This document shows, in pieces, positions 823-21,235 of a DNA stretch of 33,745 nt. A program made the translations under genes and the position numbers. The DNA lies in the NCBI GenBank assembly GCA_041617355.1, contig JBFJPA010000001.1:1-33745 (forward strand). Reading direction: 5' to 3'. Origin of the DNA: Longimicrobiales bacterium (GTDB lineage Bacteria > Gemmatimonadota > Gemmatimonadetes > Longimicrobiales > RSA9). The notes beneath the pieces are model-generated. The model saw only the letters and a program-made list of their open reading frames with translations. It was not told where the DNA came from and ran no database searches. Within the stretch, counting starts at the first letter, position 1. Every line of letters starts with the position of its first letter.

Positions 823-878
823 CGGGACACACGCACGCGAGACGTTCGTACGAGACATCCACGCAAGGACGGATCGAG

Positions 879-2939: not shown

Positions 2940-2973
2940 TCGTTCCACCTTTGCACTTCTGCGGAGACGCCCC

Positions 2974-4593: not shown

Positions 4594-4609
4594 TCGTCGA
4601 AGGAACGAC

Positions 4610-6244
4610 ATGCGGCCGATGACCCGCACGCTGGCAACGTTCGCGACCCTGGCCGTCGCGGCATCCTCGCCCGTCGCCGGCCAGGACAGACCCCCGGCCC
4701 CGTCCGATTGGCGCAGCGGCGGGACCTGCTACGAGGTCTTCGTCCGGTCCTTCTACGACAGTGACGGCGATGGCGTGGGCGACCTCGAGGGCCTCATCCA
4801 GAAGCTGGACTACATCAACGACGGGGATGCCGACTCGCTGACGGACCTCGGCGCACAGTGCATCTGGCTCATGCCCATCGCCGTCTCGACCAGCTACCAC
4901 GGCTACGACGTCATCGACTATTACCGCGTCGACCCGCGCTACGGCAGCAACGACGACTTCAAGCGGCTGGTACAGGAAGCCCACCGGCGGGGAATCCGCG
5001 TCATCGTCGACATGGTCATCAACCACGCCTCGAGCGAGCACCCGTTTTTCAAACACGCGCTGCTGCACGCCGACTCGCCGTACCGCGAATGGTTCCGCTG
5101 GTCCGATACACAGGGCCCGCGCAACGAGTGGGGTGGCTACAACTGGCACCGATCGCCCGTCCGCGACGAGTTCTACTACGGCTTCTTCTGGAGCGGCATG
5201 CCCGACCTGAACTGGGAGTCGGCGGCCGTGCGCCAGGAAATGAAGGACGTGGCCACGTTCTGGCTCGAGGAGCTGGGCGCCGACGGGTTCCGGCTGGACG
5301 CGGTCCGGCACCTGATGGAAGACGGCGAGCGCACGGCGAACGTGCCGCGCACGCACGACATGCTGCGGGAATACGCCGCCCACATCCGCGCTGTGGCCCC
5401 GGAGGCCTTCACGATCGGCGAGGTCTTCGACAGCACGGACGTCTTGCTCGCCTATTATCCGGACCAGATGGATGCTTACTTCGCGTTCCAGGTGGCCAAC
5501 GCGACGCTGGAGGCCGTGAGGTCCGGCTCGCCGGCCGGGCTCTTCGACGCCGTGCTCGACCTCCAGCGCGCCGTGCCGAACCACCGCTGGGCGCCGTTCC
5601 TGCGCAACCACGACCAGACTCGCACGCTCACGTTTCTCGAGGGCGACCTGGGCCGGGCCCGCCTGGCGGCCAGCCTGCTGCTCACGTTGCCCGGCGTGCC
5701 CTTCGTCTACTACGGCGAGGAGATCGGGATGAGCGGCGACAAGCCGGATCCCCGGCTGCGCACGCCCATGCACTGGACCCGCGCGCCGGCGGCCGGCTTC
5801 ACGACCGGCGTGCCCTGGGAGCCGCTCCAGCCGGATTCGTTGTCCGCGAATGTCGAGGTCATGAACGGGGACAACGGCTCCATCCTCAACCACTACCGTC
5901 GCCTCATCCACCTGCGCGCCCGCACGCCCGCCCTGGGCGCCGCCGCCGAGCTCGTGCCCCTCACGACCAGCGCAGCGCCGGTCGCGGCGTTCCTGCGCCG
6001 CTCGAACGAGCAGGCCGCCCTCGTCATCGCCAACCTGGGCGAGACCCCACTCCGTGGCGTTGCCGTGTCCTCCGCGGGCCCCGTGCTGCCGCAGGGCCGC
6101 TACACCCCCACGGACCCCCTCGATGGCACGCGCGTCGCACCGCTCCGCATTGCGCGCGATGGCCACATCCGTGGCTACATCCCGTTGGCTGTGTTGCCAC
6201 CCTTGCACGCCTTCGTGCTACCGCTCGGCGTGGACACGCGCTGA
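4610..6244 (+). CDS. GH13 alpha-amylase-family glycosidase (alpha-glucosidase/neopullulanase-like), secreted
   Basis: ORF 4562..6244. GH13 regions are present: GDGVGDLEGLIQKLDYI, RVIVDMVINHAS (region I), GFRLDAVRHL (II), IGEVFD (III), FLRNHDQ (IV). ATG 4610 (MRPMTRTLATFATLAVAASSPVAG, signal-like) is preceded by GAAGGAA. Confidence 0.85.
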   Translation: MRPMTRTLATFATLAVAASSPVAGQDRPPAPSDWRSGGTCYEVFVRSFYDSDGDGVGDLEGLIQKLDYINDGDADSLTDLGAQCIWLMPIAVSTSYHGYDVIDYYRVDPRYGSNDDFKRLVQEAHRRGIRVIVDMVINHASSEHPFFKHALLHADSPYREWFRWSDTQGPRNEWGGYNWHRSPVRDEFYYGFFWSGMPDLNWESAAVRQEMKDVATFWLEELGADGFRLDAVRHLMEDGERTANVPRTHDMLREYAAHIRAVAPEAFTIGEVFDSTDVLLAYYPDQMDAYFAFQVANATLEAVRSGSPAGLFDAVLDLQRAVPNHRWAPFLRNHDQTRTLTFLEGDLGRARLAASLLLTLPGVPFVYYGEEIGMSGDKPDPRLRTPMHWTRAPAAGFTTGVPWEPLQPDSLSANVEVMNGDNGSILNHYRRLIHLRARTPALGAAAELVPLTTSAAPVAAFLRRSNEQAALVIANLGETPLRGVAVSSAGPVLPQGRYTPTDPLDGTRVAPLRIARDGHIRGYIPLAVLPPLHAFVLPLGVDTR

Positions 6245-6256
6245 ACGTGAGCGCCC

Positions 6257-6278
6257 CGCTCTCCGCAAGGAGCGTTTT
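6257..6278 (+). terminator. weak hairpin plus T4 tract after the GH13 gene (possible intrinsic terminator)
   Basis: CGCTCTCC(6257-6264)-GCAA-GGAGCG(6269-6274) forms 4+2 bp with a 2-nt bulge, followed by TTTT at 6275-6278. It sits 13 nt after the TGA at 6242-6244. Confidence 0.3.
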
Positions 6279-6282
6279 GCCC

Positions 6283-6312
6283 TTGACACTCTCCTCTGGC
6301 TACGGGTATTCT
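6283..6312 (+). promoter_or_regulatory. sigma70-like promoter candidate upstream of the USP/bd-like operon
   Basis: TTGACA at 6283-6288, an 18-nt spacer, then TATTCT at 6307-6312. It lies in a 378-bp non-coding gap and would give a leader of about 300 nt before ATG 6623. Confidence 0.3.
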
Positions 6313-6622
6313 GGCGCGTGTCGCGGCCGGGGCGTCGGTACAACCCGATTCATTCGCCGGCCGCTACGCTTTCCTCGGCTCCCAGGTTACCGGTTTGTCC
6401 GCTCGTGGAGCCGGGCTCGCAGCGTCGAATCACGTGTCGGGGCCTCGTCCCCGCTGACGGATTGAAGTCTCGCAGGACCGAGGTTTCGTCCAATACGACG
6501 CAACTGATGCGATAGACCGCGAGGGTTCTCTCGCCGGCGAGGTGCTTTCTCGCGCCGGCGCGGGCACGCCGTGTGCCCGACGGGAACGCTTCGGTCTCGC
6601 GCAGAACCCGAGCCGAGATCGC

Positions 6623-8692
6623 ATGTATCGCGAAATTTACGTTCCCGTCGACAACTCCGAGTTCTCCCACATCGCGGTCGACCGCGCGATCGAGCTGTGT
6701 CGCAAGAGCGGCGGCCGTCTGACGGGCGGCCACGTGTATGCGGCGCGGCTGCACGACATCCGTTTCCGGCAGCTCGAGACCGGCCTGCCCGCCCGCTTCC
6801 AGACACCCGAAGAGATCAAGCGCCAGCGCAAGATCCACGACAAGCTGATCGAGAAAGGCCTGCAGCTCATCTCCGACTCGTTCCTCGACCAGACGGCGAA
6901 GCGGTGTGCGGCAGCCGACGTGCCGATGCGCCGGCAGTTGCTCGAGGGAATCAACTACGAGGAGATCATCAACGAGGTGAACGGCGGACAGGGCCGGCTG
7001 CCCAGCCTGATCGGCTTCGACCCGAACATCGCGGACAAGTACGACGGCGGCGAGCACGTGCGCGGGGATGTGCGCATGGGTGAGAACGGGCGGCTGATCG
7101 CGGAAGACGAGGATCTCGACGAGAAGCTGGCGGGCACGAGCGACCGCGACTACGACCTGCTCTGCATCGGTGCGCACGGCATTGGCCGGCAGCCGTATTC
7201 GCAGATGGGCGGCGTCGTCTCGCGGGTGCTGCGCGGCATCGAGAAGGATGCGCTGATCGTGCGCAACGGGGCGCCGCTGGCGGGCGGGAAGTTCATGGTC
7301 TGCATCGACGGCTCGGCGTACTCGTACAAGGCGATGCGCATCGGGCTCGAGCTGGCGCGCGAGTACGGCGCGGAGCTGTACGTCTGCTCGGCCTTCGACG
7401 TGGAGTACCACCACGTCGTGTTCGGCAACATCAAGGACGTGCTGTCGGTGCAGGCGTCGAAGGTGTTCAAGTTCGAGGAGCAGGAGGAGCTGCACAACAA
7501 CATCATCGACAAGGGCCTGCTGCGTCTGTGTCAGGCGAACATCAAGCGGGCCGAGGCGATGCGCGCGACGTATGAAGACGTCGTGATGCACACGCAGATC
7601 CTCATTGGCAAGCCCTTCCAGTGCATTCTGCAGTGGGTCGAGGAGGTGCAGCCCACGCTGCTGATCGTGGCGCGCCACGGCAGCCACCGCATCGACGACA
7701 CGGACATCGGCTCGCAGTCGGAGAACCTGTCCCGGCTGGCGGACACGAACGTGCTTCTGGTCGGCACGACGGACGTGCGGCCGGAGGAGATCCCCTGGAT
7801 CGAGGAAGACGGGCAGGCCGGCCTGGAGTGGGCGCCAGAGGCGGAAGTCCGCATCCTGCGCGTGCCACCGTTCGCACTGGGCATCGCGCGCAAGGCGGTC
7901 GAGGAATTCGTCCTCGATAACTACGGTCCCGGCGCGAACGGGACGTACGCCGGCGAAGGCAAGGGGAACGGACGGAACGGCAACGGAGTCGACGGCGACG
8001 GCGCGCCGAAGTCTCTGCCGATGGTGACGAGCGAGCTGCTGGACGAGGCGATCAAGAAGCTGCTGCCGACGCACATGCAGCTGATCATGGGCATCGGCAC
8101 CGCGGAAGAGCTGGCGCTCGCGGAAGTGAAGGCGGAGCAGGCGATGTCTCGCACGGTGGTCGAGGGCAGCGAGGCGGAGGCGGAGCCGGAGGCGGTGATC
8201 ACGGTGAAGTGTCCGTACACGGGCCACGTGCAGACGCGCGCGCGCACGGCCGCGGATCCGGTGGTCTGGACGGAGGAAGCCTTCGAGCGTTTGCGTGCGG
8301 TTCCCCTCATCGCGCGGCCGCTGGCGCGGAATACGGTGGAGCGGTTCGCCCGGGATCACGGCTTCTGGCGGATCACCACGCGCGTGATGGACGAGAACAA
8401 GCAGGCCATGATCGAGGCGGACACCTTCGACATGGACACGATGCTGGTCATGTTCCGAGAACTGCAGACGAAGCAGTTGAAGGCTGCGGCGGAAGGCGTC
8501 GATGGGCTGACGCCCGAGATGCGCCGGTTCATCGAAGAGGCGAAAGCGTCGGGAATCACGCGTTGCCCGATCCGGGACGTGGTGGAGCGTGCGGATGGCT
8601 GTCCGGTCGATCTGCAGACCGTGACGCCGCAGCAGGCGCGGTCCGCCATGGAACGGTTCATGGGTGCGGACGCCGAGGACGGTCGCGACTGA
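6623..8692 (+). CDS. tandem universal-stress-protein (USP) domain protein with two C-terminal PCP_red-like modules
   Basis: ORF 6542..8692; the first ATG with a USP-like N-terminus is 6623 (MYREIYVPVDNSEFSHIAVDRAIEL). USP-1 ends at ..YDLLCIGAHGIGRQPYSQMGGVVSRVLRGIEKDALIV. USP-2 runs KFMVCIDGSAYSYKAMRIGLELA...TLLIVARHGSHRIDDTDIGSQSENLSRLADTNVLLV. Two W-x2-E-A-x3-L-x2-VP...E-x-F modules resembling the BchB/ChlB C-terminal domain (PCP_red) lie at 7823-7926 and 8258-8400. Confidence 0.7.
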   Translation: MYREIYVPVDNSEFSHIAVDRAIELCRKSGGRLTGGHVYAARLHDIRFRQLETGLPARFQTPEEIKRQRKIHDKLIEKGLQLISDSFLDQTAKRCAAADVPMRRQLLEGINYEEIINEVNGGQGRLPSLIGFDPNIADKYDGGEHVRGDVRMGENGRLIAEDEDLDEKLAGTSDRDYDLLCIGAHGIGRQPYSQMGGVVSRVLRGIEKDALIVRNGAPLAGGKFMVCIDGSAYSYKAMRIGLELAREYGAELYVCSAFDVEYHHVVFGNIKDVLSVQASKVFKFEEQEELHNNIIDKGLLRLCQANIKRAEAMRATYEDVVMHTQILIGKPFQCILQWVEEVQPTLLIVARHGSHRIDDTDIGSQSENLSRLADTNVLLVGTTDVRPEEIPWIEEDGQAGLEWAPEAEVRILRVPPFALGIARKAVEEFVLDNYGPGANGTYAGEGKGNGRNGNGVDGDGAPKSLPMVTSELLDEAIKKLLPTHMQLIMGIGTAEELALAEVKAEQAMSRTVVEGSEAEAEPEAVITVKCPYTGHVQTRARTAADPVVWTEEAFERLRAVPLIARPLARNTVERFARDHGFWRITTRVMDENKQAMIEADTFDMDTMLVMFRELQTKQLKAAAEGVDGLTPEMRRFIEEAKASGITRCPIRDVVERADGCPVDLQTVTPQQARSAMERFMGADAEDGRD

Positions 8693-8717
8693 TCTTGGCA
8701 CGTCGGGGAGGATCCGC

Positions 8718-10088
8718 GTGAAGGACGGGTCGGGAGCGCCCGCGACGGTCGCGCCGGTCGGCGACCTGGGTCTCGGTTTTGCCTCGCGCGCCGCCGCTGC
8801 CGGGGAGAACACGCGGACGTACGTGCCGCACGTGGTCGCCTGGAACCTGACGCGCCGCTGCAACCTCGCCTGTGCCCACTGCTACATCGCGGCCGGCGCG
8901 TGGCAATCGACGGCCGACGACCTGCGCACGGACGAGTGCCTGCGCATCGCGGACGAGATCCTCGAGATCAGCCCGGCACCGATGTTCATTCTTTCGGGCG
9001 GCGAACCGCTGCTGCGCGAGGATCTCGAGACGCTCGCGGCGCACATGACGGCGCGCGGCGCCACGGTGGTCGTGGGCACGAACGGGACCCGGCTGACGAC
9101 TTCGCGCATCGCATCGCTGATGAAGGCGGGTGTGACCGGTGTCGCCGTGAGCATCGACTCGCTGGACGCCCGTTACCACGATCGGTTCCGGCACGGCGAA
9201 GGCGCGTTGCAGGACACACTCGAGGCCGTCGAGCGCCTGCGCGAGGCCGGCCTCGATTTCGTCGTGCAGACGACGGTCACGCGCGGCAACCGGGCCGAGC
9301 TTCCGGCGTTGGCGGCGTGGTGCGCAGAACGCGGCGCCGTCTCGTTCAATGTCTACTTCCTGGTCGCGACCGGGCGGGGCGCCGGCATGGGCGGACTCTC
9401 GCCCGCGGAGAACGATGAAGTCCTGGCCGGGCTGCTCACGCTGGAAGAGCGCTACCGCGGCCGGATGCTGGTGCGAGCGAAGTGTCAGCCGCAGATCATG
9501 CGGCACGCGCACGAGCGCGAGGCGAACTCGTCGCTGTTGGACTACGGCACGCGCTGTCCTTGCGGTGTCCACTACTGCCGGATCACGCCGGAAGGCCGGC
9601 TTACGCCGTGTCCGTACACGCCCGTGGAGGCCGGCGACCTGCGCGCGGCCTCGTTCGCCTCAGTCTGGGACCATTCGCCGGTGTTCGCGTCGCTGCGTGC
9701 CAACGCGCTGCAGGGACGGTGCGGCCGCTGCGAGTACCGGAGTGTTTGCGGCGGCTGCCGCGCGCGGGCGTGGGCGGAATCGGGCGACCTGCTCGCCGAA
9801 GATCCGGCGTGTGGCTATGAGCCGCCGGAGGGTCGTCCGCTGGTGCGGCCGGCACGATCGGTCACCTACGGCGCACCGACGGCGAACGAGAGCATGCCGT
9901 GGAGCGATGCCGCGCGCGCCCGCCTGTCGCGCGTGCCCGGCTTCGTGCGCGGCGTCGTCATGGCTCGCATCGAGACGTTCGCGCGCGAACGCGGCTACTC
10001 GGAGATCACGCCCGAGGTCATGGAAGCCGTACGTCGCGAGCTGCCGGTGGACTTTTCGCGCCGCATGCCGTTCTTCCTGCGGCGATAA
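8718..10088 (+). CDS. radical SAM/SPASM-domain enzyme (NirJ/AhbC/AhbD-like architecture) with a C-terminal PCP_red-like module
   Basis: ORF 8664..10088. It has a CX3CX2C cluster motif (NLTRRCNLACAHCY) and a GGEPLL SAM motif. It also has a Cys-rich SPASM-like region (CQPQ..CPCGVHYCRITPEGRLTPCPY...CGRCEYRSVCGGCRARA). The tail reads MPWSDAARARLSRVPGFVRGVVMARIETFARERGYSEITPEVMEAV. The preferred start is GTG 8718, 6 nt after GGGGAGG (8705-8711). GTG 8664 would overlap the upstream gene. Confidence 0.8.
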   Translation: MKDGSGAPATVAPVGDLGLGFASRAAAAGENTRTYVPHVVAWNLTRRCNLACAHCYIAAGAWQSTADDLRTDECLRIADEILEISPAPMFILSGGEPLLREDLETLAAHMTARGATVVVGTNGTRLTTSRIASLMKAGVTGVAVSIDSLDARYHDRFRHGEGALQDTLEAVERLREAGLDFVVQTTVTRGNRAELPALAAWCAERGAVSFNVYFLVATGRGAGMGGLSPAENDEVLAGLLTLEERYRGRMLVRAKCQPQIMRHAHEREANSSLLDYGTRCPCGVHYCRITPEGRLTPCPYTPVEAGDLRAASFASVWDHSPVFASLRANALQGRCGRCEYRSVCGGCRARAWAESGDLLAEDPACGYEPPEGRPLVRPARSVTYGAPTANESMPWSDAARARLSRVPGFVRGVVMARIETFARERGYSEITPEVMEAVRRELPVDFSRRMPFFLRR

Positions 10089-10143
10089 CGGGCTGAACCG
10101 GACGAAGGAGGCATCGCGGGTATGATGCGCTGGGAGGCTGGCC

Positions 10144-11994
10144 ATGAGGGTTGAAACGGCCCGGGCCGCACGGTTGCGTGGCCGCGTGCACGCCATCGCC
10201 GGGCGCGCGCCGCGGTGGGCGCCGTCCGCCACGTTCGCGGCGCTGCTGCTGGCCCTGTTCGCCGCGCCCGGCTTCGCGCAGGAAGCCGCCCGCGAATACG
10301 GTAACTTCCCGGTCATCGGCAGCCGCGCCGCGGTGTGGATCGCCGCCCAGGTACATCTCATGTTCGCGGCGTTCGTGCTGGGCGTGCCGATGTTCGCCGT
10401 CGCAGTGGAAGCGATCGGAATCGTGACCAAGGACGAGCGCTACGACCGGCTGTCCAAGGAGTTCGTCCGGCTGCTGCTCATCGCCTACAGCGCCACCGCC
10501 ATGTGGGGCGCCGTCCTCACCTTCTTCCTGATCACGCTCTACCCCCGGTTCTGGAACCATCTCTCGGAGATCTTCGAGGTCTCCATGTGGATCTACGTGG
10601 GGCTCTTCTTCGTCGAGTCCTTCACGCTCTACCTCTACTACTACGGCTGGGACCGCTGGAAGAAAGGCCGCGCCAAGCTCGGCCACCTCGGCCTCGGCAT
10701 CCTGCTCAACGTATGGGGCACGGCCGTCATGTTCATCGCCGACAGCTGGCTCAGCTACATGATGAGCCCGCCCGCCGACATGACGCCCGACACCTCGCCG
10801 GCCATGGTGCAGGCCTGGAGCGCGATCGCGAACGCGACGTGGATGCCCATCAATATCCACCGCCTCATCGCCAACGTCGTGTTCGGCGGCTCCATCGTCG
10901 CCGGCTACGCCGCGTTCCGCTTCCTGAACGCGAAGACGGACGAAGAGCGCGCGCACTACGACTGGATGGGCTACATCGGCAATTTCATCGCCATTGCCGC
11001 CCTGCTCACCCTCCCGTTCGCCGGGTACTGGCTGGGCCGCGAGATCTATGCGTACAACCAGTCGATGGGCATCACCATGATGGGCGGCTTCATGAGCTGG
11101 CTCTGGATCATCCAGGCCATCCTCATCGGCGTCCTCTTCCTCGCGGCCAACTACTACCTGTGGATCGGGCTGGGCCGCATCCCCGGCGGCGAGCGTTTCG
11201 TGCCCTACACGAAGTGGATGCTGATCCTGCTAGTGCTCGGGGTGATCGTGTGGGCGACGCCCAACACAATGATCGCCGACCGCGGGGAGCTGGCCGCGAT
11301 GGGTGGCACGCACCACCCGTTCCTCGGTGTGCTCGGCGTGATGAGCGCGAAGAACACGGCGGTCAACCTGATGATCCTGACGACGTTCCTGTCGTTCCTG
11401 ATGTACCGCAGGGCGAACAAGGAGCCGACGGTCGACTGGGCGAGGTCCGGCACGATCGTGCAGGGCGGCATCATGGCGATCGCGGCGGCCGTCGTCATCT
11501 TCTTCGGCGTCTACGGCTACTTCGTCTCGGCGATCGTGCGCATCGGCTTCAGCGTCTATCAGGTGGGCGCGGTGCTGTTCACGATCATCGCCGTCACGGT
11601 GATCGACGTGATGCTCTCGCGGGGCGCGACCTCGCGCGGCGAGATCCGCTGGGGCATGATGCCGGAGCGCTCGCAGTACGCGCTGTTCATCCTGGTCGTC
11701 ACGTTCACGTGGCTGATGGGGCTGATGGGCTTCGCGCGCAGCGGCATCCGGCAGCACTGGCACGTCTGGGAAGTGATGCGCGACACGAGTGTGGACGCGG
11801 CGACGCCGGCGCTCGGGTATGCCGGCACGGTGATCAGCACATGCGTCCTGATCTTCCTGCTGATGATCGCGTTCATCTTCTGGCTGGGCGGCCTGGTCGA
11901 GAAGCCGGCCCTGGTCGGCAAGGAAACCATGGTGACGGCACCGGAACCGCGACGCGAGCCGCCGGCCGATCTGGCGCCGGCGACGGGCGACTGA
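10144..11994 (+). CDS. cytochrome bd subunit I (CydA)-like membrane protein, non-canonical (no Q-loop, about 13-14 TM helices)
   Basis: 616 aa. The helix-1 His context AAQVHLMFAAFVLGVPMFAVAVEAIG resembles the CydA His19 region. FFVESFTLYLYYYGWDRW resembles E. coli FFLESTFVGLFFFGWDRL. INIHRLIANVVFGGSIVAGYAAFRFL resembles the His186 helix. All inter-helix loops are short. GGGAGG lies 6 nt upstream of ATG 10144. Confidence 0.75.
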   Translation: MRVETARAARLRGRVHAIAGRAPRWAPSATFAALLLALFAAPGFAQEAAREYGNFPVIGSRAAVWIAAQVHLMFAAFVLGVPMFAVAVEAIGIVTKDERYDRLSKEFVRLLLIAYSATAMWGAVLTFFLITLYPRFWNHLSEIFEVSMWIYVGLFFVESFTLYLYYYGWDRWKKGRAKLGHLGLGILLNVWGTAVMFIADSWLSYMMSPPADMTPDTSPAMVQAWSAIANATWMPINIHRLIANVVFGGSIVAGYAAFRFLNAKTDEERAHYDWMGYIGNFIAIAALLTLPFAGYWLGREIYAYNQSMGITMMGGFMSWLWIIQAILIGVLFLAANYYLWIGLGRIPGGERFVPYTKWMLILLVLGVIVWATPNTMIADRGELAAMGGTHHPFLGVLGVMSAKNTAVNLMILTTFLSFLMYRRANKEPTVDWARSGTIVQGGIMAIAAAVVIFFGVYGYFVSAIVRIGFSVYQVGAVLFTIIAVTVIDVMLSRGATSRGEIRWGMMPERSQYALFILVVTFTWLMGLMGFARSGIRQHWHVWEVMRDTSVDAATPALGYAGTVISTCVLIFLLMIAFIFWLGGLVEKPALVGKETMVTAPEPRREPPADLAPATGD

Positions 11995-12004
11995 GGAGGC
12001 GACG

Positions 12005-12823
12005 ATGGGCGGAACGAACCTGCGGGTGTTCGGCGTCGTCGTCGCGACGGTGCTGTTCTACGCCCTGCTGGCCAACGCGATTCCCCAGGTCCGATCGGAA
12101 GTGCCGCAGGAGCTCACGCTGGGCGCCGAGGCGACGACCGACCAGCTGGTCGCGGCGGGCGAGCAGCTCTACGCGGGCGCGGGCGGCTGCACGGCCTGCC
12201 ACGGGCTCGGCACACGTGCGCCCAACCTGCTCACGGATGAAGGTGGGACCGGCCAGATCGGGGCGCGCTGCACGAACCGCGTGGCCGGCGAGACGTGCGA
12301 GCAATACCTCTGGAAATCGATGACGGAGCCGAACGTCTTTGTCGTCGAGGGCTACCAGCCTATCATGCCGGACATGCGGCGGACGATTTCCGAAGGACAG
12401 ATCTGGACACTCGTCGCATACCTGCAGAGTCTGGGCGGCGAGGTGACGGTGACGGGCGCACAGGTCGCCGAAGCACAGGCCGCGTCGGCCAGCGCGGGCG
12501 GCGGAGCGGCGGCGGCCGGCGGCGCGGCGGGCGGCGCCGCGGCGTATGCCGGCGGCAGCACCGACCCGCAGGAGCTGATCACGGCCGGCGCGTGCAGCGC
12601 GTGTCACGTGTTGAACGGCCAGGGCGGCCCCATCGGCCCGCCGTTCGACGGCATGGGCGCCCGACTCGACGAGGCGCGCATCCGCAGGGGCATCATCGAG
12701 CCGAACGCCGACACGGCGCAGGGCTTCGAGGCGATGGCCGGCACGATGCCCGCCAACTTCGGCACACAGATGAACGCGGCGCAGCTGGAAGCGCTGGTCC
12801 GGTTTCTCGCCGGCCTGAGGTGA
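12005..12823 (+). CDS. membrane-anchored dihaem c-type cytochrome
   Basis: N-terminal TM helix (LRVFGVVVATVLFYALLANAI) and two CxxCH motifs (GGCTACHG, GACSACHV) separated by an Ala/Gly-rich linker. GAGGAGG overlaps the upstream stop, with a 10-nt gap to ATG 12005. Confidence 0.8.
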   Translation: MGGTNLRVFGVVVATVLFYALLANAIPQVRSEVPQELTLGAEATTDQLVAAGEQLYAGAGGCTACHGLGTRAPNLLTDEGGTGQIGARCTNRVAGETCEQYLWKSMTEPNVFVVEGYQPIMPDMRRTISEGQIWTLVAYLQSLGGEVTVTGAQVAEAQAASASAGGGAAAAGGAAGGAAAYAGGSTDPQELITAGACSACHVLNGQGGPIGPPFDGMGARLDEARIRRGIIEPNADTAQGFEAMAGTMPANFGTQMNAAQLEALVRFLAGLR

Positions 12824-12837
12824 GGAGGCGCACCGTC

Positions 12838-13635
12838 ATGCGAAAGCTCAAGCACCCGTTCTGGCAGACCCTGGTCCTGCTCGTCGTGTCCTGGGTCCTG
12901 ATCGAGTTCGGCATCGCATATCTGCCGCCGCTGCTCGGCATGCGCAGCGCGCCCGTTCCGAACAGCGTCGTGCTGCAATACCTGGTGACGGTGCTGGTCG
13001 GACTCCTGCTCTATGTGAGCGCCGACATGGCCCGCTGGAAGGAGTTCAAGCAACCGATCCGCGCCGCCATGGTCGATGCCGACAAGCGCTGGGTCCGTCT
13101 CGCGCTGCTCGTGCTCATCCCCGGCCTCGTCGGCTTCGTCGCGTTCGACCGCGTTCGCCCGAAGGTGTCGGCGCCGCCGTCACTGCGCTCGATCCATCCG
13201 GCGCCGCCCACGTCGATCACGTTCCAGGGCCGGACCATCAACCTGGCGACTGTGCAGAACCCGCTGCGCTCGCGCGGCACGATCGAAGAGCACTACGAGA
13301 CCGGCAAGCGCCTCTACACGCAGAACTGCATGCCCTGCCACGGCGACTACCTGGACGGCCGCGGCCACTACGCACACGGCTTCAGCCCGACGCCGCTCAG
13401 CTTCCAGGACAACGGCACGATCGCGCAGCTGTCGGAGAGCTTCGTCTTCTGGCGCGTCGCCAAGGGCGGCGTCGGCCTGCCCCGTGAGGGCACGCCGTGG
13501 AACTCCGCCATGCCGGCCTGGGAGGACTTCCTGACCGAAGATGAGATCTGGGCCGTGATCCTGTTTCTCTACGAGCAGACGCCCTGGGAGCCGCGCGTGA
13601 TGGAAGCGCACGGCGCCGAGGCGGGAGGTCACTGA
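12838..13635 (+). CDS. membrane-bound monohaem c-type cytochrome (about 3 N-terminal TM helices)
   Basis: Lies in the frame of ORF 12295..13635. ATG 12838 sits 9 nt after GAGGAGG (12822-12828). Hydrophobic N-terminus (FWQTLVLLVVSWVLIEFGIAYL.., VLQYLVTVLVGLLLYV, WVRLALLVLIPGLVGFVAF), then a single CxxCH (NCMPCHGDY) and ..WNSAMPAWEDFLTEDEIWAVILFLY. Confidence 0.75.
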   Translation: MRKLKHPFWQTLVLLVVSWVLIEFGIAYLPPLLGMRSAPVPNSVVLQYLVTVLVGLLLYVSADMARWKEFKQPIRAAMVDADKRWVRLALLVLIPGLVGFVAFDRVRPKVSAPPSLRSIHPAPPTSITFQGRTINLATVQNPLRSRGTIEEHYETGKRLYTQNCMPCHGDYLDGRGHYAHGFSPTPLSFQDNGTIAQLSESFVFWRVAKGGVGLPREGTPWNSAMPAWEDFLTEDEIWAVILFLYEQTPWEPRVMEAHGAEAGGH

Positions 13636-15209
13636 TGCGCACGCGCGTGAGACTGACCCCCGCCCTCGTGTGCGCGGCGCTGCTCTCGCCAGCCGCCGCT
13701 GCCGGGCAGGATGCGAACCACCCCGGCAAGCCGGTCTACGATCGCTGGTGTGCGAGCTGCCACGGCGTCGACGGCCGCGGCCAGGGCGATGCGGCCGACT
13801 GGATGCTGCCCCGCCCTCGCGACTTCACGCAGGCGCTCTACCAGGTGCGCACGACGAACACCGGCTCGTTGCCGACCGACTCCGACATCCTGAAGGTCAT
13901 CGACGAAGGCATGCCCGGCACGGCCATGCCGGGCTGGCGGACGGCGCTGTCGTCGACTGAAAAACAGAACCTCGTCTCCTACCTGAAGACGTTCTCTCGG
14001 TTCTTCGAAACGGACACGCCGGATGTCATCCAATTCGGACGTGCGCCGGGCGTGAACGACGCAGTGCTCGCCGAAGGCGCCGAGGTCTACCGCGCGCTCG
14101 AGTGCTTCAAGTGTCACGGCGAGGCGGGTCGGGGCGATGGCGAGTCGGCGCCGACGCAGGAGGACGACAACGGCTTCCCGATCCGGCCGGCGGACCTGTC
14201 GCAGCCCTGGTACTTCAACGGCGGCGGCACGGTCGAGGACATCTACCGGCGGCTGCGCACGGGCCTGGACGGCACGCCGATGCCGTCCTACAGCGACGCG
14301 CTGGCCGCCAACATCGTCACGGACGAACAACTGTGGGCCGTCGCCCATTACGTGAAGAGCCTCGGTGGCGAGACGCCGCGCGTGCGCGAGGTCGTCGAGG
14401 CCCGCCGCGCTGCCAATGGCCTGCCCGCATCGCCGACCGACTCGGCGTGGGCAACCGTTCAGCGGTTCTGGATCCCGCTCGTCGGCCAGATCATCGTCAG
14501 GCCGCGCTGGTTCGCGCCGGCCGTGACCGGCGTGTGGGTCCAGGCCGTTCACGACGGCACGGACCTCGTGATGCGGCTGAGCTGGAGCGACCGTTCGAAC
14601 AGCCCGGACCCGGTCTGGGGCGACTGGCGAGCCGGCGTCACGCGCATCATGGCACCCCACGAAGACCCGGCAGCCGCCGCAGGCGATTCCGTTGCGGCGC
14701 CCGCGACGCCGGACGGCATCGCGGTATGGTTCCCGCGCACACCACCGACGGGCATGGATCGCCCGTACTTCTTCATGGGCAGCACGCGCGAGCCGGTCTA
14801 TGCGTGGCACTGGCAGAGCACGACGGGCGTGCGCGAGGCGCGCGGCCGCGGGCCGGGCGTGCTGGAGTCGCTCGGCGGTCCGGGCAACGGCCTCACGGGC
14901 GAAGCCGTCTTCGAGGCCGGCCAGTGGCACCTCATGGTGCGCCGGCCGCTCGCCGCGACCGATTCCGCCAACGCGTTGTCGTTCCCGGCCGGACAGGCCA
15001 TCCCAATGGCGTTTTTCGCCTGGGACGGCGACAACGGCGAGAGCGGGACGAAGGGCTCGCTCAGCACGTGGTACTTCCTGCAGCTCACGGAGCCGACGCC
15101 GGCGACGTCGTATGCGACGCCGCTCATCGCGGTCCTGCTGACGGCCGGCTTCGGCGTCTTCGTCGTCGGCCGCGCGCAGCGCCGCGAACGGGAGCAGCAG
15201 GGCGATTGA
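13635..15209 (+). CDS. dihaem cytochrome c fused to an ethylbenzene-dehydrogenase-like (EB_dh) haem-binding domain, with a C-terminal TM anchor
   Basis: Signal-like N-terminus (MRTRVRLTPALVCAALLSPAAAAGQD) and CxxCH twice (WCASCHGVDGRG, CFKCHGEAGRG). The EB_dh-like pattern follows: W..IPLVGQ...VWVQAVHDG.DLVMRLSWSD...IAVWFP...PYFFMG...PVYAWHW...GQWHLMVRRPL...PMAFFAWDGDNGE.G.KGS.STWYFLQL. C-terminal TM helix LIAVLLTAGFGVFVV. The start overlaps the upstream stop (TGATG, 13633-13637). GGGAGG at 13623-13628. Confidence 0.75.
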   Translation: MRTRVRLTPALVCAALLSPAAAAGQDANHPGKPVYDRWCASCHGVDGRGQGDAADWMLPRPRDFTQALYQVRTTNTGSLPTDSDILKVIDEGMPGTAMPGWRTALSSTEKQNLVSYLKTFSRFFETDTPDVIQFGRAPGVNDAVLAEGAEVYRALECFKCHGEAGRGDGESAPTQEDDNGFPIRPADLSQPWYFNGGGTVEDIYRRLRTGLDGTPMPSYSDALAANIVTDEQLWAVAHYVKSLGGETPRVREVVEARRAANGLPASPTDSAWATVQRFWIPLVGQIIVRPRWFAPAVTGVWVQAVHDGTDLVMRLSWSDRSNSPDPVWGDWRAGVTRIMAPHEDPAAAAGDSVAAPATPDGIAVWFPRTPPTGMDRPYFFMGSTREPVYAWHWQSTTGVREARGRGPGVLESLGGPGNGLTGEAVFEAGQWHLMVRRPLAATDSANALSFPAGQAIPMAFFAWDGDNGESGTKGSLSTWYFLQLTEPTPATSYATPLIAVLLTAGFGVFVVGRAQRREREQQGD

Positions 15210-15363
15210 TGTTCCCACGCCGCTCGCGCGGCGCGCCAGACAACAGGAACGATCGGCACGTCCCGCCGTGATGGCGCGACGGATGCTTGCCTTTCACTGC
15301 CCCGTCTCGTACGGCGGACCCGTGCGTGACGTGGCAACACAACCCAACCGACTCGGAGGCAGT

Positions 15364-16221
15364 ATGCGTATCGCTCGACGACTCACCGGCTCGATGACAG
15401 TCCTGTCCCTCGCAGCCGCATTCGCATGCGGCGGCGGCGACAGCGGCGAGGCGGGGGGCGGCGAGGCCGCCACGCCCGCTGCGGCGCCCGCCGCAGTCGC
15501 CGATGCCGGCACGATCACGGGAAGCATCGACTTCGCGGGTGAAGCGCCCGCGAATGCGACGGTCGATATGAGCGCGGAGGCGCCCTGTGCCGCCAAACAC
15601 ACGACGACGCCCACACGTGAGACGGTCATCGCGAATGGCGGCAAGCTGACCAACGTCTTCGTCTACATCAAGGAAGGCATCACGGGTGACTATCCGGCGC
15701 CGTCCACGCCGGTCAACGTGAACCAGGACGGCTGCGTCTACATCCCGCACGTCGTGGGCGCACAGGTCGGCCAGACCGTCGCCTTTCAGAACAGTGACGG
15801 CCTGTTGCACAACATCAAGGCCGCTCCGACCAACAACCGTACGTTCAACATCAGCCAGCCGAACAACATGACGACGAACCGCTCGTTCAGCGCGGCCGAG
15901 GTCATGATCCCCGTCCAGTGCGACGTGCACGGCTGGATGGAGATGTACATCGGTGTGGTTGCGCACCCCTACTTCGCGGTGAGCGGCACGGACGGCTCCT
16001 TCCGGATCGGCAACGTTCCGCCCGGCACCTACACACTGGAGGCGTGGCACGAGAAGTACGGCGTGCAGACGCAGCAGGTGACGGTGGACCCGAACGGGAC
16101 CGCGACCGTCACGTTCGGCTACAGCGCTTCCATGGCGGCGAACGCGGTCGTGCCACTGGGTGCGCCGCTCGATCCGCACGACCACCACGGGACCGTCGCC
16201 CCGCGCACGGGCGACCGCTAG
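15364..16221 (+). CDS. lipoprotein cupredoxin (type-1 copper, amicyanin-like ligand spacing) fused to a CarboxypepD_reg-like beta-sandwich
   Basis: ORF 15268..16221. ATG 15364 follows GGAGG. Lipobox-like LSLAAAFAC|GGG. Candidate Cu ligands are LLHNI (His codon 15808-15810) and C-D-V-H-G-W-M (15919-15939). The C-terminal part reads GTDGSFRIGNVPPGTYTLEAWHEKYG. Confidence 0.7.
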   Translation: MRIARRLTGSMTVLSLAAAFACGGGDSGEAGGGEAATPAAAPAAVADAGTITGSIDFAGEAPANATVDMSAEAPCAAKHTTTPTRETVIANGGKLTNVFVYIKEGITGDYPAPSTPVNVNQDGCVYIPHVVGAQVGQTVAFQNSDGLLHNIKAAPTNNRTFNISQPNNMTTNRSFSAAEVMIPVQCDVHGWMEMYIGVVAHPYFAVSGTDGSFRIGNVPPGTYTLEAWHEKYGVQTQQVTVDPNGTATVTFGYSASMAANAVVPLGAPLDPHDHHGTVAPRTGDR

Positions 16222-16257: not shown

Positions 16258-17022
16258 ATGGACGGGTTCTGGCGGATGCCGCAGAACATCTCGACGTTCG
16301 GCGCCGACATCGACCGGATGTTCTTTATCATCGCGGTCATTACGGGCGTCGTCTTCGTCCTCGTCGAGGCCCTGCTGATCTACTACCTGATCAAGTACCG
16401 CGGGAAGGAGGGCCGCAAGGCTCGCTTCACTCACGGCAACAGCACGATGGAGATCATGTGGACCGTGGCCACGGCGATCATCGTGGTCATCGTCGGCGTC
16501 ATGAGCCGCGGCCTCTGGCTCGACATCAAGGACCCCCGGCGATTCCCCGACGCGGGCATCGAGCTCCGCATCACGGCCAAGCAGTTCGAATGGAACGTGA
16601 CGTATCCGGGCGCGGACGGGCAGCTGGACACCGCCGACGACTTCGTCAAACGGAACCAGCTGCACGTCCCCGTCAACACCAAGGTCCACGTCCAACTGCA
16701 GTCCGAGGACGTGATCCACTCCTTCTACCTCCCGGAGCTCCGCCTCAAGCAGGACGCCGTTCCCGGGATGAGCATTCCCGCCTGGTTCGAGGCGACGACG
16801 CCCGGCGAATACACCATCGGCTGCGCGGAGCTGTGCGGGACCGGCCACTATCGAATGAAGGGCACGATGACCGTGCTCGCGGCTGCGGATTGGGACACGT
16901 GGTACGGCCAGGAGATGCAGGCCGTCGCCAGCGCCGGCGGCAACTCGGCGCCGCTGGCCGGCGCCGCTGCGCCGGCCGAGCCGACGCCGGCCGCCACACC
17001 GACCGCCACCCACGCGCATTGA
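16258..17022 (+). CDS. coxB: cytochrome c oxidase subunit II (CuA; no fused cytochrome c domain)
   Basis: Two N-terminal TM helices, VIHSFYLPELRLKQDAVPG, and the CuA motif CAELCGTGHYRM. Ala/Pro-rich C-terminal tail with no CxxCH. GAGGAGGAG lies upstream of ATG 16258. Confidence 0.9.
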   Translation: MDGFWRMPQNISTFGADIDRMFFIIAVITGVVFVLVEALLIYYLIKYRGKEGRKARFTHGNSTMEIMWTVATAIIVVIVGVMSRGLWLDIKDPRRFPDAGIELRITAKQFEWNVTYPGADGQLDTADDFVKRNQLHVPVNTKVHVQLQSEDVIHSFYLPELRLKQDAVPGMSIPAWFEATTPGEYTIGCAELCGTGHYRMKGTMTVLAAADWDTWYGQEMQAVASAGGNSAPLAGAAAPAEPTPAATPTATHAH

Positions 17023-17038
17023 ACGAGGAACGACGACC

Positions 17039-18814
17039 ATGAGCACTGTCGCGGTGCCCCACGAAGCACACGCCGTCGCACACGAGCACCACGAGCAGAT
17101 CCCGTGGATCCGGCGCTACGTGTTCTCGACCGACCACAAGGTCATCGGCATTCAGTTCTTGTTCATGAGCCTGTTCTTCCTGCTCTTTGGCGGGCTCCTC
17201 GCCATGGCCATGCGCTGGCAGCTCGCCTGGCCGACCGACCCCAACATGCCCCTGCCCGGCGGCAACCTGCTGCCCGAGACCATGGTCAACCAGGGCGTCA
17301 TGTTGCCGGAGTTCTACAATGCCCTCGTCACCATGCATGGCACGATCATGGTCTTCTTCGCGATCATGCCGCTGCTCGTGGGCGTCTGGGCAAACTACCT
17401 GATTCCGCTGCAGATCGGGGCGCCCGACATGGCGTTCCCTCGATTGAACATGATCTCGTTCTGGATGGCCGCCTCGGCGGGCATCCTGATGATGGCGAGT
17501 TTCTTCGTGGTCGGCGGCGCCGCTAGCGCCGGCTGGACCGGCTACGCACCACTCAGTACGAGCGACGTCTACAGCGGCGTCAAACTCGGCCAGCAGCTTT
17601 GGTGTGTGAGCCTCGTTGTCCTCGGGTTCTCTTCCTTGATAGGCGCCGTGAACTACATCACGACGCTCATCAACATGCGCGCGCCCGGCTTGACCTGGTT
17701 CCGTCTGCCGCTCTCGACGTGGGCCTTGTTCGTGACGTCCGTGCTGATCCTGCTCGCTGTGCCGATCCTGGCCGGCGGCCTGATCATGCTCTTCTTCGAC
17801 ATCACCATCGGCACCTCGTTCTTCCGGCCCGAGGGCGGCGGCCAGCCGATCCTGTGGCAGCATCTGTTCTGGTTCTTCGGCCACCCCGAGGTCTACATCC
17901 TGATCCTGCCGTCCATGGGCTTCGTTTCCGATGTCCTCGCGAATGGCGCGCGCAAGCCGATCTTCGGCTACGCCGCGATGGTCTGGGCGATCGTCGGGAT
18001 CGGCTTCATCGGCTGGATCGTGTGGGGCCACCACATGTTCATGAGCGGCATGAACCCGATGCTGGGCGGGTTCTTCATGATCACGACGCTGATCATCGCG
18101 GTGCCCTCGGCGATCAAGACGTTCAACTGGCTGGGCACCCTGTGGGGCGGCAACATCCGCTTCCACACGCCCATGCTCTACGCGCTCGGCTTCGTCTCGC
18201 TGTTCGTCATCGGCGGGCTGTCCGGCGTGTTCCTGGCGGCGGGACCGGTCGACATCCCGCTGCACGACACGTACTTCGTAGTCGCCCACATCCACTACGT
18301 GCTGGTGGGCGGCAGCCTGTTCGGCATTTTCGCGGCGATCACGTTCTGGTATCCGAAGATGTTCGGCCGACTGATGAGCGAGAAGCTGGGCGTGCTGCAC
18401 TTCGCGACCACGTTCATCTTCTTCAACCTCGTCTTCTTTCCGATGCACATGCTGGGCACGGGCGGGATGATGCGCCGGCTCTACGATCCGACGCAGTATC
18501 CGAACCTGGCGGCGCAGCAAGACACGAACGTCTTCATCACGATCAATGCGCTGCTGCTGTTCGCGGCCCAGCTGATCTTCGCGTTCAACTTCCTGTGGAG
18601 CCTGAAGAAGGGGAAGAAATCGGACGCGAACCCGTGGGAGGCGAATTCGCTCGAATGGACTGCGCCCTCGCCGCCGCCACACGGAAACTGGGGCGGCGTG
18701 ACGCCGACGGTCTATCGCGGACCGTATGAATACAGCGCGCCGGAGACGGAGAGGGACTACTGGCTGCAGACGGAACCGGGCAGGGGCGGACAGACCGCCC
18801 CGGGCGCACACTGA
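17039..18814 (+). CDS. ctaD: cytochrome c oxidase subunit I (A-family haem-copper oxidase)
   Basis: 591 aa. Signatures: TDHKVIGIQFL, WFFGHPEVYILILP, VWGHHMF, HDTYFVVAHIHYVL. Confidence 0.95.
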   Translation: MSTVAVPHEAHAVAHEHHEQIPWIRRYVFSTDHKVIGIQFLFMSLFFLLFGGLLAMAMRWQLAWPTDPNMPLPGGNLLPETMVNQGVMLPEFYNALVTMHGTIMVFFAIMPLLVGVWANYLIPLQIGAPDMAFPRLNMISFWMAASAGILMMASFFVVGGAASAGWTGYAPLSTSDVYSGVKLGQQLWCVSLVVLGFSSLIGAVNYITTLINMRAPGLTWFRLPLSTWALFVTSVLILLAVPILAGGLIMLFFDITIGTSFFRPEGGGQPILWQHLFWFFGHPEVYILILPSMGFVSDVLANGARKPIFGYAAMVWAIVGIGFIGWIVWGHHMFMSGMNPMLGGFFMITTLIIAVPSAIKTFNWLGTLWGGNIRFHTPMLYALGFVSLFVIGGLSGVFLAAGPVDIPLHDTYFVVAHIHYVLVGGSLFGIFAAITFWYPKMFGRLMSEKLGVLHFATTFIFFNLVFFPMHMLGTGGMMRRLYDPTQYPNLAAQQDTNVFITINALLLFAAQLIFAFNFLWSLKKGKKSDANPWEANSLEWTAPSPPPHGNWGGVTPTVYRGPYEYSAPETERDYWLQTEPGRGGQTAPGAH

Positions 18815-19501: not shown

Positions 19502-19801
19502 ATGGCGGATTCGAGTGGAGCGGCCGGGACCGCGGCAGAGCACAAGAAGCCGAACTACTACATGATCTGGCTGTACCTGGCCGTGCTGACGGCGGCCGAG
19601 GTCGGCGTCGCATTCATATCACAGATCCCGAAGCAGGTCCTGATTCTGATCCTGCTGGCGATGGCCGTCTGGAAGGCGGTGCTGGTCGCACTGTACTACA
19701 TGCATTTGAAGTTCGAGCCGAAGCGGCTCTGGTGGATCGCCCTTTCGCCGTTGCCGCTGGCGGTGATCCTCGTGGTCATCGTGCTGATGGAACGGTGGTA
19801 A
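19502..19801 (+). CDS. cytochrome c oxidase subunit IV family protein (prokaryotic COX4_pro type)
   Basis: Lies in the frame of ORF 19346..19801, starting at ATG 19502. 99 aa with 3 TM helices and the family-typical KAVLVALYYMHLKF motif. It directly follows subunit III. Confidence 0.8.
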   Translation: MADSSGAAGTAAEHKKPNYYMIWLYLAVLTAAEVGVAFISQIPKQVLILILLAMAVWKAVLVALYYMHLKFEPKRLWWIALSPLPLAVILVVIVLMERW

Positions 19802-19819: not shown

Positions 19820-19972
19820 ATGCATGAGTTGATGGTCGGAATGTTCTGGGCAGGACTGCTGATGGCCGTGCCGCCGATCCTGGTGGGCGCGGGCATCGTG
19901 GTGCTGCTCGTGAAGCAGCAGAAGCTGGCAGATCGGCGACCCGATCCATCGGGCCCGCCCTCAGGCCGCTGA
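19820..19972 (+). CDS. small single-TM protein, 50 aa (below the 60-aa ORF-track cutoff)
   Basis: Hand translation gives MHELMVGMFWAGLLMAVPPILVGAGIVVLLVKQQKLADRRPDPSGPPSGR*. It starts 18 nt after the subunit IV stop and has one clean hydrophobic helix followed by a basic stretch. Alternative starts are ATG 19832 and 19841. Confidence 0.4.
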   Translation: MHELMVGMFWAGLLMAVPPILVGAGIVVLLVKQQKLADRRPDPSGPPSGR

Positions 19973-19979
19973 GCACGCC

Positions 19980-20008
19980 GATCCCGGTCCGGCACCGGCA
20001 CCGGGATC
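19980..20008. repeat. perfect 9-bp inverted repeat (GATCCCGGT / ACCGGGATC) with an 11-nt spacer
   Basis: Read directly: 19980-19988 is the reverse complement of 20000-20008. It lies in the gap between the 50-aa ORF and the 8-TM gene. No T-tract follows. Confidence 0.6.
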
Positions 20009-20012
20009 CCAA

Positions 20013-20027
20013 CCTCCAGAGTGGAGG
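20013..20027 (+). promoter_or_regulatory. hairpin that pairs the Shine-Dalgarno sequence of the downstream gene (CCTCCA-gag-TGGAGG)
   Basis: CCTCCA (20013-20018) is the reverse complement of TGGAGG (20022-20027). The GGAGG arm sits 6 nt upstream of ATG 20034. Confidence 0.45.
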
Positions 20028-20033
20028 CTCCGC

Positions 20034-21002: not shown

Positions 21003-21003
21003 T

Positions 21004-21225
21004 ATGAACCTGGTCGCGTTCCACCGATTCCTGATCACGGCAGGCATTGTCTTCTGCTTCGGATTCGCCGTTTGGGATGTTCGCGTGTGGAACGCGACCG
21101 GGCGCACGTCCACGCTTCTGCTTGCGACCCTGTTCGCGCTGCTCGGCGCCGGCCTCATCGTATATCTGCGGCGGCTGAATCGGATCCTCGGCTACGAGCG
21201 CGGCGACGCGGAGCGGCCGCGCTAA
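21004..21225 (+). CDS. small 2-TM membrane protein (73 aa), hypothetical
   Basis: ATG 21004 lies 1 nt after the upstream TGA (21000-21002). It has two hydrophobic helices (FLITAGIVFCFGFAVW, LLLATLFALLGAGLIVYL). Confidence 0.55.
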   Translation: MNLVAFHRFLITAGIVFCFGFAVWDVRVWNATGRTSTLLLATLFALLGAGLIVYLRRLNRILGYERGDAERPR

Positions 21226-21235
21226 CGTCGTTTCC

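Follow-up and report, generated by a model that had tools for sequence, protein, structure and literature searches.

In a 33,745-nt stretch of DNA from a Longimicrobiales bacterium of the phylum Gemmatimonadota (contig JBFJPA010000001.1 of assembly GCA_041617355.1, positions 1 to 33,745; hereafter the window), we identified a six-gene unit (6623-15209) centered on a CydA-like haem b membrane protein of 616 amino acids (aa) that we assign to the OR-N2 family of the cytochrome bd superfamily. The CydA-like protein and the three c-type cytochromes encoded after it form a module that precedes, in the window and across several phyla, the genes for a putative copper lipoprotein and an aa3-type cytochrome c oxidase. 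We tentatively propose that the module transfers electrons from menaquinol to the aa3 oxidase in place of a complex III. The retained succession of the module, a putative copper protein and the aa3 oxidase joins two open problems, the function of OR-N proteins and the missing complex III of Gemmatimonadota. OR-N bd-like proteins are abundant, highly transcribed in Nitrospira and, as a family, biochemically uncharacterised, and in most Gemmatimonadota genomes a cytochrome c oxidase is encoded without a recognisable complex III.

An OR-N2-type CydA-like protein without CydB

The 616-aa protein matched the Cyt_bd_oxida_I family (PF01654) over residues 60-581 with 72.2 bits (cut-off, 26.2), and hidden Markov model searches of all six proteins returned every domain predicted in a preliminary description of the window, each above the Pfam gathering score. 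Solved CydA chains align by sequence only to the ~240 N-terminal residues of the protein (E 3e-11). Its AlphaFold2 (AF2) model (pLDDT 80.6) comprises an N-terminal helix and 13 transmembrane (TM) helices, and the top 10 matches to the model in a Foldseek search of the PDB were all CydA chains (E 1e-8 to 3e-5; target-normalised TM-score 0.42-0.58). Helix 266-304 of the model is followed by the next TM helix within 11 residues and, because no predicted periplasmic loop exceeds ~29 residues, the protein would have no Q-loop. CydB (PF02322) was absent from the same-species gene calls and from the other window genes scanned, and the flanks of related loci hold other genes. Thus, the CydB-less core with periplasm-facing c-type cytochromes that had been described initially holds, and is Q-loop-less as well. 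The top database homologues are named ‘cytochrome ubiquinol oxidase subunit I’. A 322-aa membrane protein encoded further downstream was considered as a hidden CydB and rejected, having no PDB or NCBIfam match.

Murali, Gennis and Hemp split the bd superfamily in 2021 into qOR, OR-C and OR-N (bioRxiv 10.1101/2021.01.16.426971). The OR-N2 row of their Supplementary Table 6 lists H99, Y183, E190, Y197, Y199, H213, H269, M430/N434, S563 and W569, along with 14 TM helices. According to the same authors, OR-N2 operons encode several cytochromes c together with a homologue of EbdC and, in most cases, no second CydA (bioRxiv 10.1101/2021.01.16.426971). The 616-aa protein has H71, Y151, E158, Y165, Y167, H181, H239, M400/N404, S533 and W539 at matching intervals: H71 and S533 are 462 residues apart, and the corresponding distance is 464 residues in the reference for OR-N2 but 397 in that for OR-N1. 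E158 also agrees with OR-N2, whereas OR-N1 has a Gly at the E107 position. H71, the His19 equivalent, corresponds in the alignment to H21 of CydA from G. thermodenitrificans. Of 48 diverse homologues, 33 have His at this position, and most of those that do not belong to one redundant paralogue cluster. H391 and H540 are candidate sixth ligands for the haems at H71 and H239/M400. Equivalents of His19, His186/Met393, E107, H126 and W441 are all kept, and the positions of E99 and E445 are occupied by Y151 (by alignment) and S533 (by the spacing of the OR-N2 reference), respectively. Further, a Nitrospira/Manganitrophaceae protein is 38% identical to it over the full length. OR-C membership was ruled out because the protein has no CxxCH; it also has 14 helices, compared to ~8 TM helices and haem c motifs in the CydA of OR-C. 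The signature residues, the predicted helix count and the operon composition place the protein in OR-N2, which bears out, and narrows, the initial reference to a non-quinol OR-N family. OR-N proteins are already tabulated for Gemmatimonadota in the literature, and the four-gene core is a member of a known, biochemically uncharacterised family rather than a new one. Nor is O2 reduction fed by cytochrome c a new proposal; for OR-N it is a standing hypothesis in the literature.

OR-N bd-like proteins are represented by more than 7500 close homologues and by 1218 clusters at 50% identity. In one paralogue cluster of the family (P0150, P0274-P0286), H71 is replaced by Pro, E158 by Ala and M400 by Trp; these proteins may be a ligand-less ‘b-type’ partner subunit. 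Two variants (P0121 and P0125; 784-889 aa) are fusions of the CydA-like protein with cytochrome c domains.

Periplasm-facing c-type cytochromes

The six proteins contain, from the first gene to the last, 0, 0, 0, 2, 1 and 2 CxxCH motifs. By motif, the periplasmic side of the module would carry approximately five c haems and one b haem. The b haem would reside in the EB_dh domain (PF09459; 62.9 bits, cut-off 33.3) of the 524-aa dihaem protein, where M381 and K473 correspond to M108 and K201, the haem b ligands of EbdC; K473 is offset by one residue from the EbdC lysine and aligns exactly with the NxrC lysine. The dihaem domain of the same protein (13713-14363; residues 27-243) matches chain B of the Kuenenia stuttgartiensis structure 6H5L (E 1.6e-52, 182 bits), which we take to be the dihaem partner of a HAO-like octahaem protein. 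The overall architecture is as described for the alt-NxrC of Nitrospira. Fusion variants support the view that the cytochrome subunits form one complex: besides P0121 and P0125, a locus from NC10 (L068, 12551-14734) encodes the monohaem 3-TM and dihaem/EB_dh proteins as a single 727-aa protein with three CxxCH motifs.

Conserved order of the module, the putative copper protein and the aa3 oxidase

A scan of species representatives with a narrow CydA-like alignment retrieved at least 570 relatives. We kept 80 loci, 64 of them from Gemmatimonadota (Longimicrobiales, Gemmatimonadales and Palauibacter) and 16 from other phyla (Rokubacteria/Methylomirabilota, NC10, Chloroflexi, Thermoanaerobaculia and Myxococcota), and scored their flanks with the window proteins; the counts given here cover the loci with enough flank. 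Neighborhood conservation, which the preliminary description had named as a check, proved strong. In Gemmatimonadota, the universal stress protein (USP) and radical S-adenosylmethionine (radical-SAM) genes are upstream in 44/44 loci, the three cytochromes follow the CydA-like gene in 47/47, the gene for the 285-aa lipoprotein comes after the module in 42/43 and coxB-coxA in 43/43. In the other phyla, the three cytochromes are retained in 11/12 loci and the lipoprotein gene and coxB-coxA in 8/11 each; the USP and radical-SAM pair is upstream in only 2/15 (both NC10-type) and downstream in one more (Thermoanaerobaculia). Chance adjacency or an annotation artefact as the origin of the cluster was rejected because 44/44 Gemmatimonadota loci keep the upstream pair and 47/47 the three cytochromes.

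Complete Gemmatimonadota genomes that have the cluster include OZ241869.1 and OY282356.1.

Taken across at least four phyla (Gemmatimonadota, Chloroflexi, Rokubacteria and Methylomirabilota), the bd-like module precedes coxBA in 51 of 54 loci, with the putative cupredoxin gene between them in 50. This conserved order argues for a functional coupling of the module to the aa3 oxidase. The aa3 operon reported earlier as lying directly downstream is therefore more than a neighbor, and to that observation we add the complex-III-like reading discussed below. The conserved flanks of the Gemmatimonadota loci are the USP, radical-SAM, putative cupredoxin and cox genes. A locus in a metagenome-assembled genome (MAG) of Fibrobacterota keeps the four-gene core. 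Two homologues, L085 from Nitrospira/Manganitrophaceae and L088, stand as orphans with no cytochrome genes beside them. The phylum-wide supercluster and the cross-phylum linkage to the putative cupredoxin and aa3 genes were not found in the literature searched, nor was the independent cassette of PCP_red proteins described below.

The 285-aa lipoprotein combines a CarboxypepD_reg domain with residues that could form a type-1 copper site. H149, N150, C186, H189 and M192 (H-N ... C-x2-H-x2-M) are invariant in 17 sequences from Gemmatimonadota, Chloroflexi and Rokubacteria/Methylomirabilota, and the copper-ligand set is also present in homologues associated with the PCP_red cassette. The protein has no Pfam cupredoxin match, databases label it CarboxypepD_reg only, and its single PDB sequence match is a weak one to a blue copper protein (5fc9_A, E 0.067). 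The single-sequence AF2 model (pLDDT 33.7) was too low in confidence to use. We propose that the lipoprotein is an electron carrier. The operon that follows is assigned to the A-type (aa3) cytochrome c oxidases by its COX1 and CuA-bearing COX2 proteins. Because CoxB carries the CuA motif (CAELCGTGHYRM) yet no cytochrome c domain of its own, the oxidase needs an external one-electron donor.

A possible substitute for complex III

The reading to which we give most credence, while holding it tentatively, is that the module is a menaquinol:cytochrome c/cupredoxin oxidoreductase that feeds the aa3 oxidase as a complex III stand-in. Electrons would be exchanged by way of the bd-like subunit between the membrane and the wire of periplasmic haems; from there, they would pass to the cupredoxin and then to the CuA center of the aa3 oxidase. 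The module would in this way replace complex III in a phylum where bc1 and alternative complex III (ACIII) are mostly missing. We favor this role because of the gene order, the equivalent place taken by a bc-type cluster in another locus and the occurrence of the module in Kuenenia. In the locus concerned (L093), a Rieske/cytochrome b/multihaem c cluster occupies the position of the bd-like module and is followed by a homologous putative cupredoxin gene and the USP cassette. Kuenenia, which is an anammox bacterium, and the Fibrobacterota are anaerobic lineages. The presence of the module in Kuenenia and in the Fibrobacterota MAG speaks against O2 reduction as its only role.

A survey of 326 Gemmatimonadota genomes reported petB in 23%, ACIII in less than 10% and a caa3-type oxidase in 74%, and its authors suggest that novel complex III modules exist (PMC9426454). 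The same survey assigned K00425 (cydA) to 173 of the genomes and K00426 (cydB) to 95 (PMC9426454, Data Set S4), numbers that are consistent with CydB-less copies being counted as bd oxidases. Probably, the CydB-less bd-like genes were included there among the canonical high-affinity bd oxidases.

Several observations weigh against a menaquinol-oxidising role. Murali et al. use the lack of a quinol site to define OR-N (bioRxiv 10.1101/2021.01.16.426971). The Q-loop or quinol site between helices 6 and 7 is absent from the 616-aa model, and no recognisable quinol-binding feature was found in the protein. The equivalents of His19, a ligand of the O2-binding haem, and of E107 and H126, part of the proton path, are conserved, and OR-N proteins figure in the literature as putative O2 reductases. 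Furthermore, OR-N1 and OR-N5 relatives are co-encoded with PetABD, and the bd-like protein looks in those cases like an oxidase downstream of the bc complex (bioRxiv 10.1101/2021.01.16.426971). Lastly, petB is present in 3 of the 16 genomes with cydA but no cydB listed in the small accessible part of the survey table (19%, compared to a base rate of 23%), where no anticorrelation is visible, although so limited a sample is not informative (PMC9426454).

A terminal oxidase, the view taken in the literature and in the preliminary description, is nearly as likely. Reduced cytochrome c or cupredoxin would donate electrons to the c haems and the bd-like subunit would reduce O2, possibly with high affinity, at the H71 haem; the module would then adjoin the aa3 genes because both oxidases use the same periplasmic donors. 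The retention of the His19, E107, H126 and W441 equivalents fits this chemistry, and O2 reduction has been proposed for OR-N by Murali et al. and by studies of Nitrospinota and Nitrospira. The monohaem and dihaem anchored subunits resemble CcoO and CcoP of cbb3 oxidases and have Pfam Cytochrome_CBB3 matches. In addition, Nitrospira has no haem-copper oxidases, and some bd-like protein must therefore reduce O2 there. However, the E99 and E445 equivalents have been lost (Y151 and S533), there is no CydB and the module occurs in the anammox bacterium Kuenenia. An oxidase role also leaves the order of module, putative cupredoxin and aa3 unexplained, and the missing complex III unsolved.

It is improbable that the module serves as a dock for electron entry from a periplasmic dehydrogenase. 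Here, the EB_dh domain would bind a soluble molybdo-enzyme or other dehydrogenase, as has been proposed for NXR (nitrite oxidoreductase) in Nitrospira, and electrons would travel along the c haems to the aa3 oxidase or via the bd-like subunit to the quinone pool. The Met/Lys haem ligands of EB_dh are intact, as in EbdC and NxrC; the Nitrospira and Kuenenia modules are in or near NXR clusters, and alt-NxrC has been proposed as an NXR anchor. Yet the 33.7-kb window contains no genes for the alpha or beta subunits of a molybdo-enzyme of the dimethyl sulfoxide (DMSO) reductase type, and the conserved Gemmatimonadota flanks, queried with the window proteins, yielded no such enzyme; the partner would have to be encoded elsewhere. 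Even less likely is a reductase of nitric oxide (NO) or another oxidant, or a hypoxia or stress detoxification module with the USP and the O2-labile radical-SAM enzyme as stress-linked partners: canonical bd oxidases aid NO and O2 detoxification, as reviewed in the literature, and the USP and radical-SAM genes are directly upstream in all Gemmatimonadota loci with enough flank, but their cassette is not specific to the module, nothing in the sequence suggests NO chemistry and the conserved linkage is to aa3, not to denitrification genes.

The proposed menaquinol:cytochrome c/cupredoxin role can be extended beyond the window. The reverse direction of the same chemistry would suit the NXR clusters of nitrite oxidisers and anammox bacteria. 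The OR-N2 module could then be a third, unrecognised kind of complex III for Gemmatimonadota, Rokubacteria, Methylomirabilota and some Chloroflexi, reversed in nitrite oxidisers and anammox bacteria and serviced by the PCP_red cassette. This wider proposal is less probable than the menaquinol:cytochrome c/cupredoxin role itself.

Comparison with named systems

The closest likeness is to a Nitrospira cluster described as ‘bd-like_3 + two c-type cytochromes + alt_NxrC_2’, which has, matched by description, the same four-gene composition. The cluster is among the 40 most transcribed genes of Nitrospira and has been reported as conserved in Nitrospina and anammox bacteria. By annotation, Kuenenia kustd1709-1712 (diheme, monoheme, diheme, cydA) also has this composition, with uspA at kustd1706. 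The CydA-like subunit of OR-N2 likewise has 14 helices, no quinol site, no haem c motif and the signature residues given above; there is no second CydA or CydB, and the order of the cytochromes (dihaem, monohaem, dihaem/EbdC-like) is that of the window. Context sets them apart. The Nitrospira and Kuenenia modules are in or near NXR clusters, whereas the window module is outside such a context and is flanked instead by USP-PCP_red and radical-SAM-PCP_red genes before it and by the genes for the putative type-1 copper lipoprotein and the CuA-containing aa3 oxidase after it.

Compared to canonical CydAB(X), the window protein shares the CydA fold and the ligand equivalents but has no CydB or Q-loop, carries Tyr and Ser in place of E99 and E445, and has extra helices. 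ACIII consists of a membrane subunit and approximately six periplasmic c-type haems on membrane-anchored subunits, and is encoded directly upstream of a haem-copper oxidase. Its likeness to the window module, which has no NrfD-like or Fe-S subunits, is a functional analogy without homology. The cbb3 oxidases also have anchored monohaem and dihaem cytochromes c (CcoO and CcoP) with Cytochrome_CBB3 domains beside the catalytic subunit. That subunit is, however, a haem-copper oxidase, whereas the catalytic subunit in the window is of the CydA type and is accompanied by an extra EB_dh haem b domain.

A separate PCP_red cassette that includes the USP and radical-SAM genes

The preliminary description placed a radical-SAM enzyme and a USP protein before the CydA-like gene, and both are there, with the order corrected to USP first and radical-SAM second. 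The best NCBIfam matches of the 456-aa radical-SAM protein were AhbD (284.1 bits) and NirJ2 (283.6 bits), aligned end to end and both below their 500-bit equivalog cut-offs. The protein also has the CNLACAHC (CX3CX2C) motif. It is thus assigned, by similarity, to the tetrapyrrole-modifying AhbD/NirJ type, without being an orthologue by NCBI’s criteria. The CX3CX2C motif and the SPASM domain are shared with AhbD and NirJ, and the PCP_red fusion and the pairing with a USP-PCP_red protein set the 456-aa protein apart from them. Its PCP_red domain is similar to Asr4154 (2l09_A) and to the C-terminal part of BchB (2xdq_B). USP orthologues of the same architecture occur in NC10 and Thermoanaerobaculia, and a search with the NC10 orthologue returned at least 5253 proteins with Usp and PCP_red domains, with or without a rubredoxin-like domain.

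Six sampled contexts of the USP family (L090-L095) define a recurrent cassette. Besides the USP-PCP_red protein and the radical-SAM-SPASM-PCP_red enzyme, it encodes an Mrp/ParA ATPase, a small protein with a PCP_red domain, a ~133-aa membrane protein and either CopD or a cation-efflux protein. It is also represented in the window (6623-10088) and in loci L068, L083 and L084. A homologue of the putative copper lipoprotein is encoded immediately upstream of the cassette in 4 of the 6 contexts. The cassette adjoins the Rieske/cytochrome b/multihaem c cluster in L093 and a full cox-ctaAB-SCO1 cluster in L095, and is without respiratory complexes in the other four (L090, L091, L092 and L094). Because it is also found beside bc-type and aa3 clusters without a bd-like gene, the cassette is not a dedicated maturase for the bd-like module. 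This, along with the upstream pair being present in only 2/15 loci outside Gemmatimonadota, weakens the earlier suggestion that the module has its ‘own cofactor maturase and sensor’. Rather, the USP/radical-SAM cassette is a separate accessory unit of terminal respiratory islands, with a possible role in haem or other cofactor handling or in regulation. The similarity to AhbD/NirJ, the BchB lid domain and the proximity of HmuY genes, both in L092 and in the window, are only suggestive of a tetrapyrrole link. A literature search found no association of ‘bd-like’ with radical SAM nor of PCP_red with radical SAM, and the PCP_red cassette is apparently undescribed.

Gene layout, control region and surroundings

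The six genes and the downstream oxidase genes are listed in Table 1. As first described, all six are on the same strand, are separated by gaps of 25, 55, 10 and 14 nt and then a 1-nt TGATG overlap, and encode the haem motifs counted above; GGAGG-type sites precede five of them, the exception being the first (USP) gene. Independent gene calls on four same-species MAG contigs gave identical products for the six genes. The nearest homologues are from Gemmatimonadota/Longimicrobiales MAGs, and the G+C content of the window is ~67%.

Table 1. Features of the six-gene unit, its upstream region and the downstream oxidase operon.
Feature	Position	Strand	Evidence
Promoter-like site TTGACA-18 nt-TATTCT	6283..6312	+	Consensus match alone (10/12); in the 378-nt gap before the first gene
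Tandem-USP protein with two PCP_red domains, 689 aa, cytoplasmic	6623..8692	+	Pfam Usp 99.7 bits, PCP_red 53.5 bits; no TM segment
Radical-SAM/SPASM enzyme with C-terminal PCP_red, 456 aa, GTG start	8718..10088	+	Radical_SAM 98, SPASM 27 (cut-off 21.5), PCP_red 56.8 bits
CydA-like haem b membrane protein, OR-N2 type, 616 aa	10144..11994	+	Pfam PF01654, predicted fold, signature residues
Membrane-anchored dihaem cytochrome c, 272 aa	12005..12823	+	CxxCH at 62 and 197; N-terminal TM 8-26; Pfam Cytochrom_C and Cytochrome_CBB3, two stretches
3-TM monohaem cytochrome c, 265 aa	12838..13635	+	CxxCH at 164; three TM peaks; one Pfam cytochrome c domain
Dihaem cytochrome c with EB_dh, 524 aa	13635..15209	+	Signal peptide, C-terminal TM anchor; two Pfam cytochrome c domains and EB_dh
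Lipoprotein with putative type-1 copper site and CarboxypepD_reg domain, 285 aa	15364..16221	+	H149, C186, H189, M192 motif
CoxB, CuA site, no fused cytochrome c	16258..17022	+	Pfam COX2 and COX2_TM; motif C189-AELCGTGHYRM
CoxA, haem-copper oxidase subunit I	17039..18814	+	Pfam COX1, 499.5 bits
CoxC (subunit III), 215 aa	18840..19487	+	Pfam COX3; gene call from same-species contigs
Subunit IV (COX4_pro)	19502..19801	+	Pfam PF03626, 58.9 bits

Of 44 related loci, 13 have a 9-mer with TTGACA, as in the promoter-like site, ahead of the USP gene. An Rfam scan upstream of the unit gave no regulatory RNA match, no FNR box (TTGAT-N4-ATCAA-like) was found in 6245-6622, and the stretch between the six-gene unit and the putative copper lipoprotein gene (15209-15364) has no terminator-like site, in keeping with a coupling of the module to the aa3 genes. 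Over the whole window, TTGAT-N4-ATCAA-like sites with up to 2 mismatches numbered 12, compared to 3.7 expected; most are within coding regions and a few in unassigned stretches, and the excess is probably a codon or composition effect.

Directly upstream of the unit (61-6244) is a starch/alpha-glucan cluster (alpha-amylase C-terminal domain, GH97, sodium:solute symporter (SSF) and alpha-amylase), which the same-species contigs also carry and which has no relation to the respiratory genes. The cox genes are followed (19820-21901) by genes for a 50-aa TM peptide, the 322-aa membrane protein (~8 TM helices and no Pfam match either), a 73-aa TM protein and a protein with an HmuY domain, a haem-binding family. 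The HmuY call comes from precomputed Pfam annotation of the same-species contigs, and HmuY genes also come after the USP cassette in L092.

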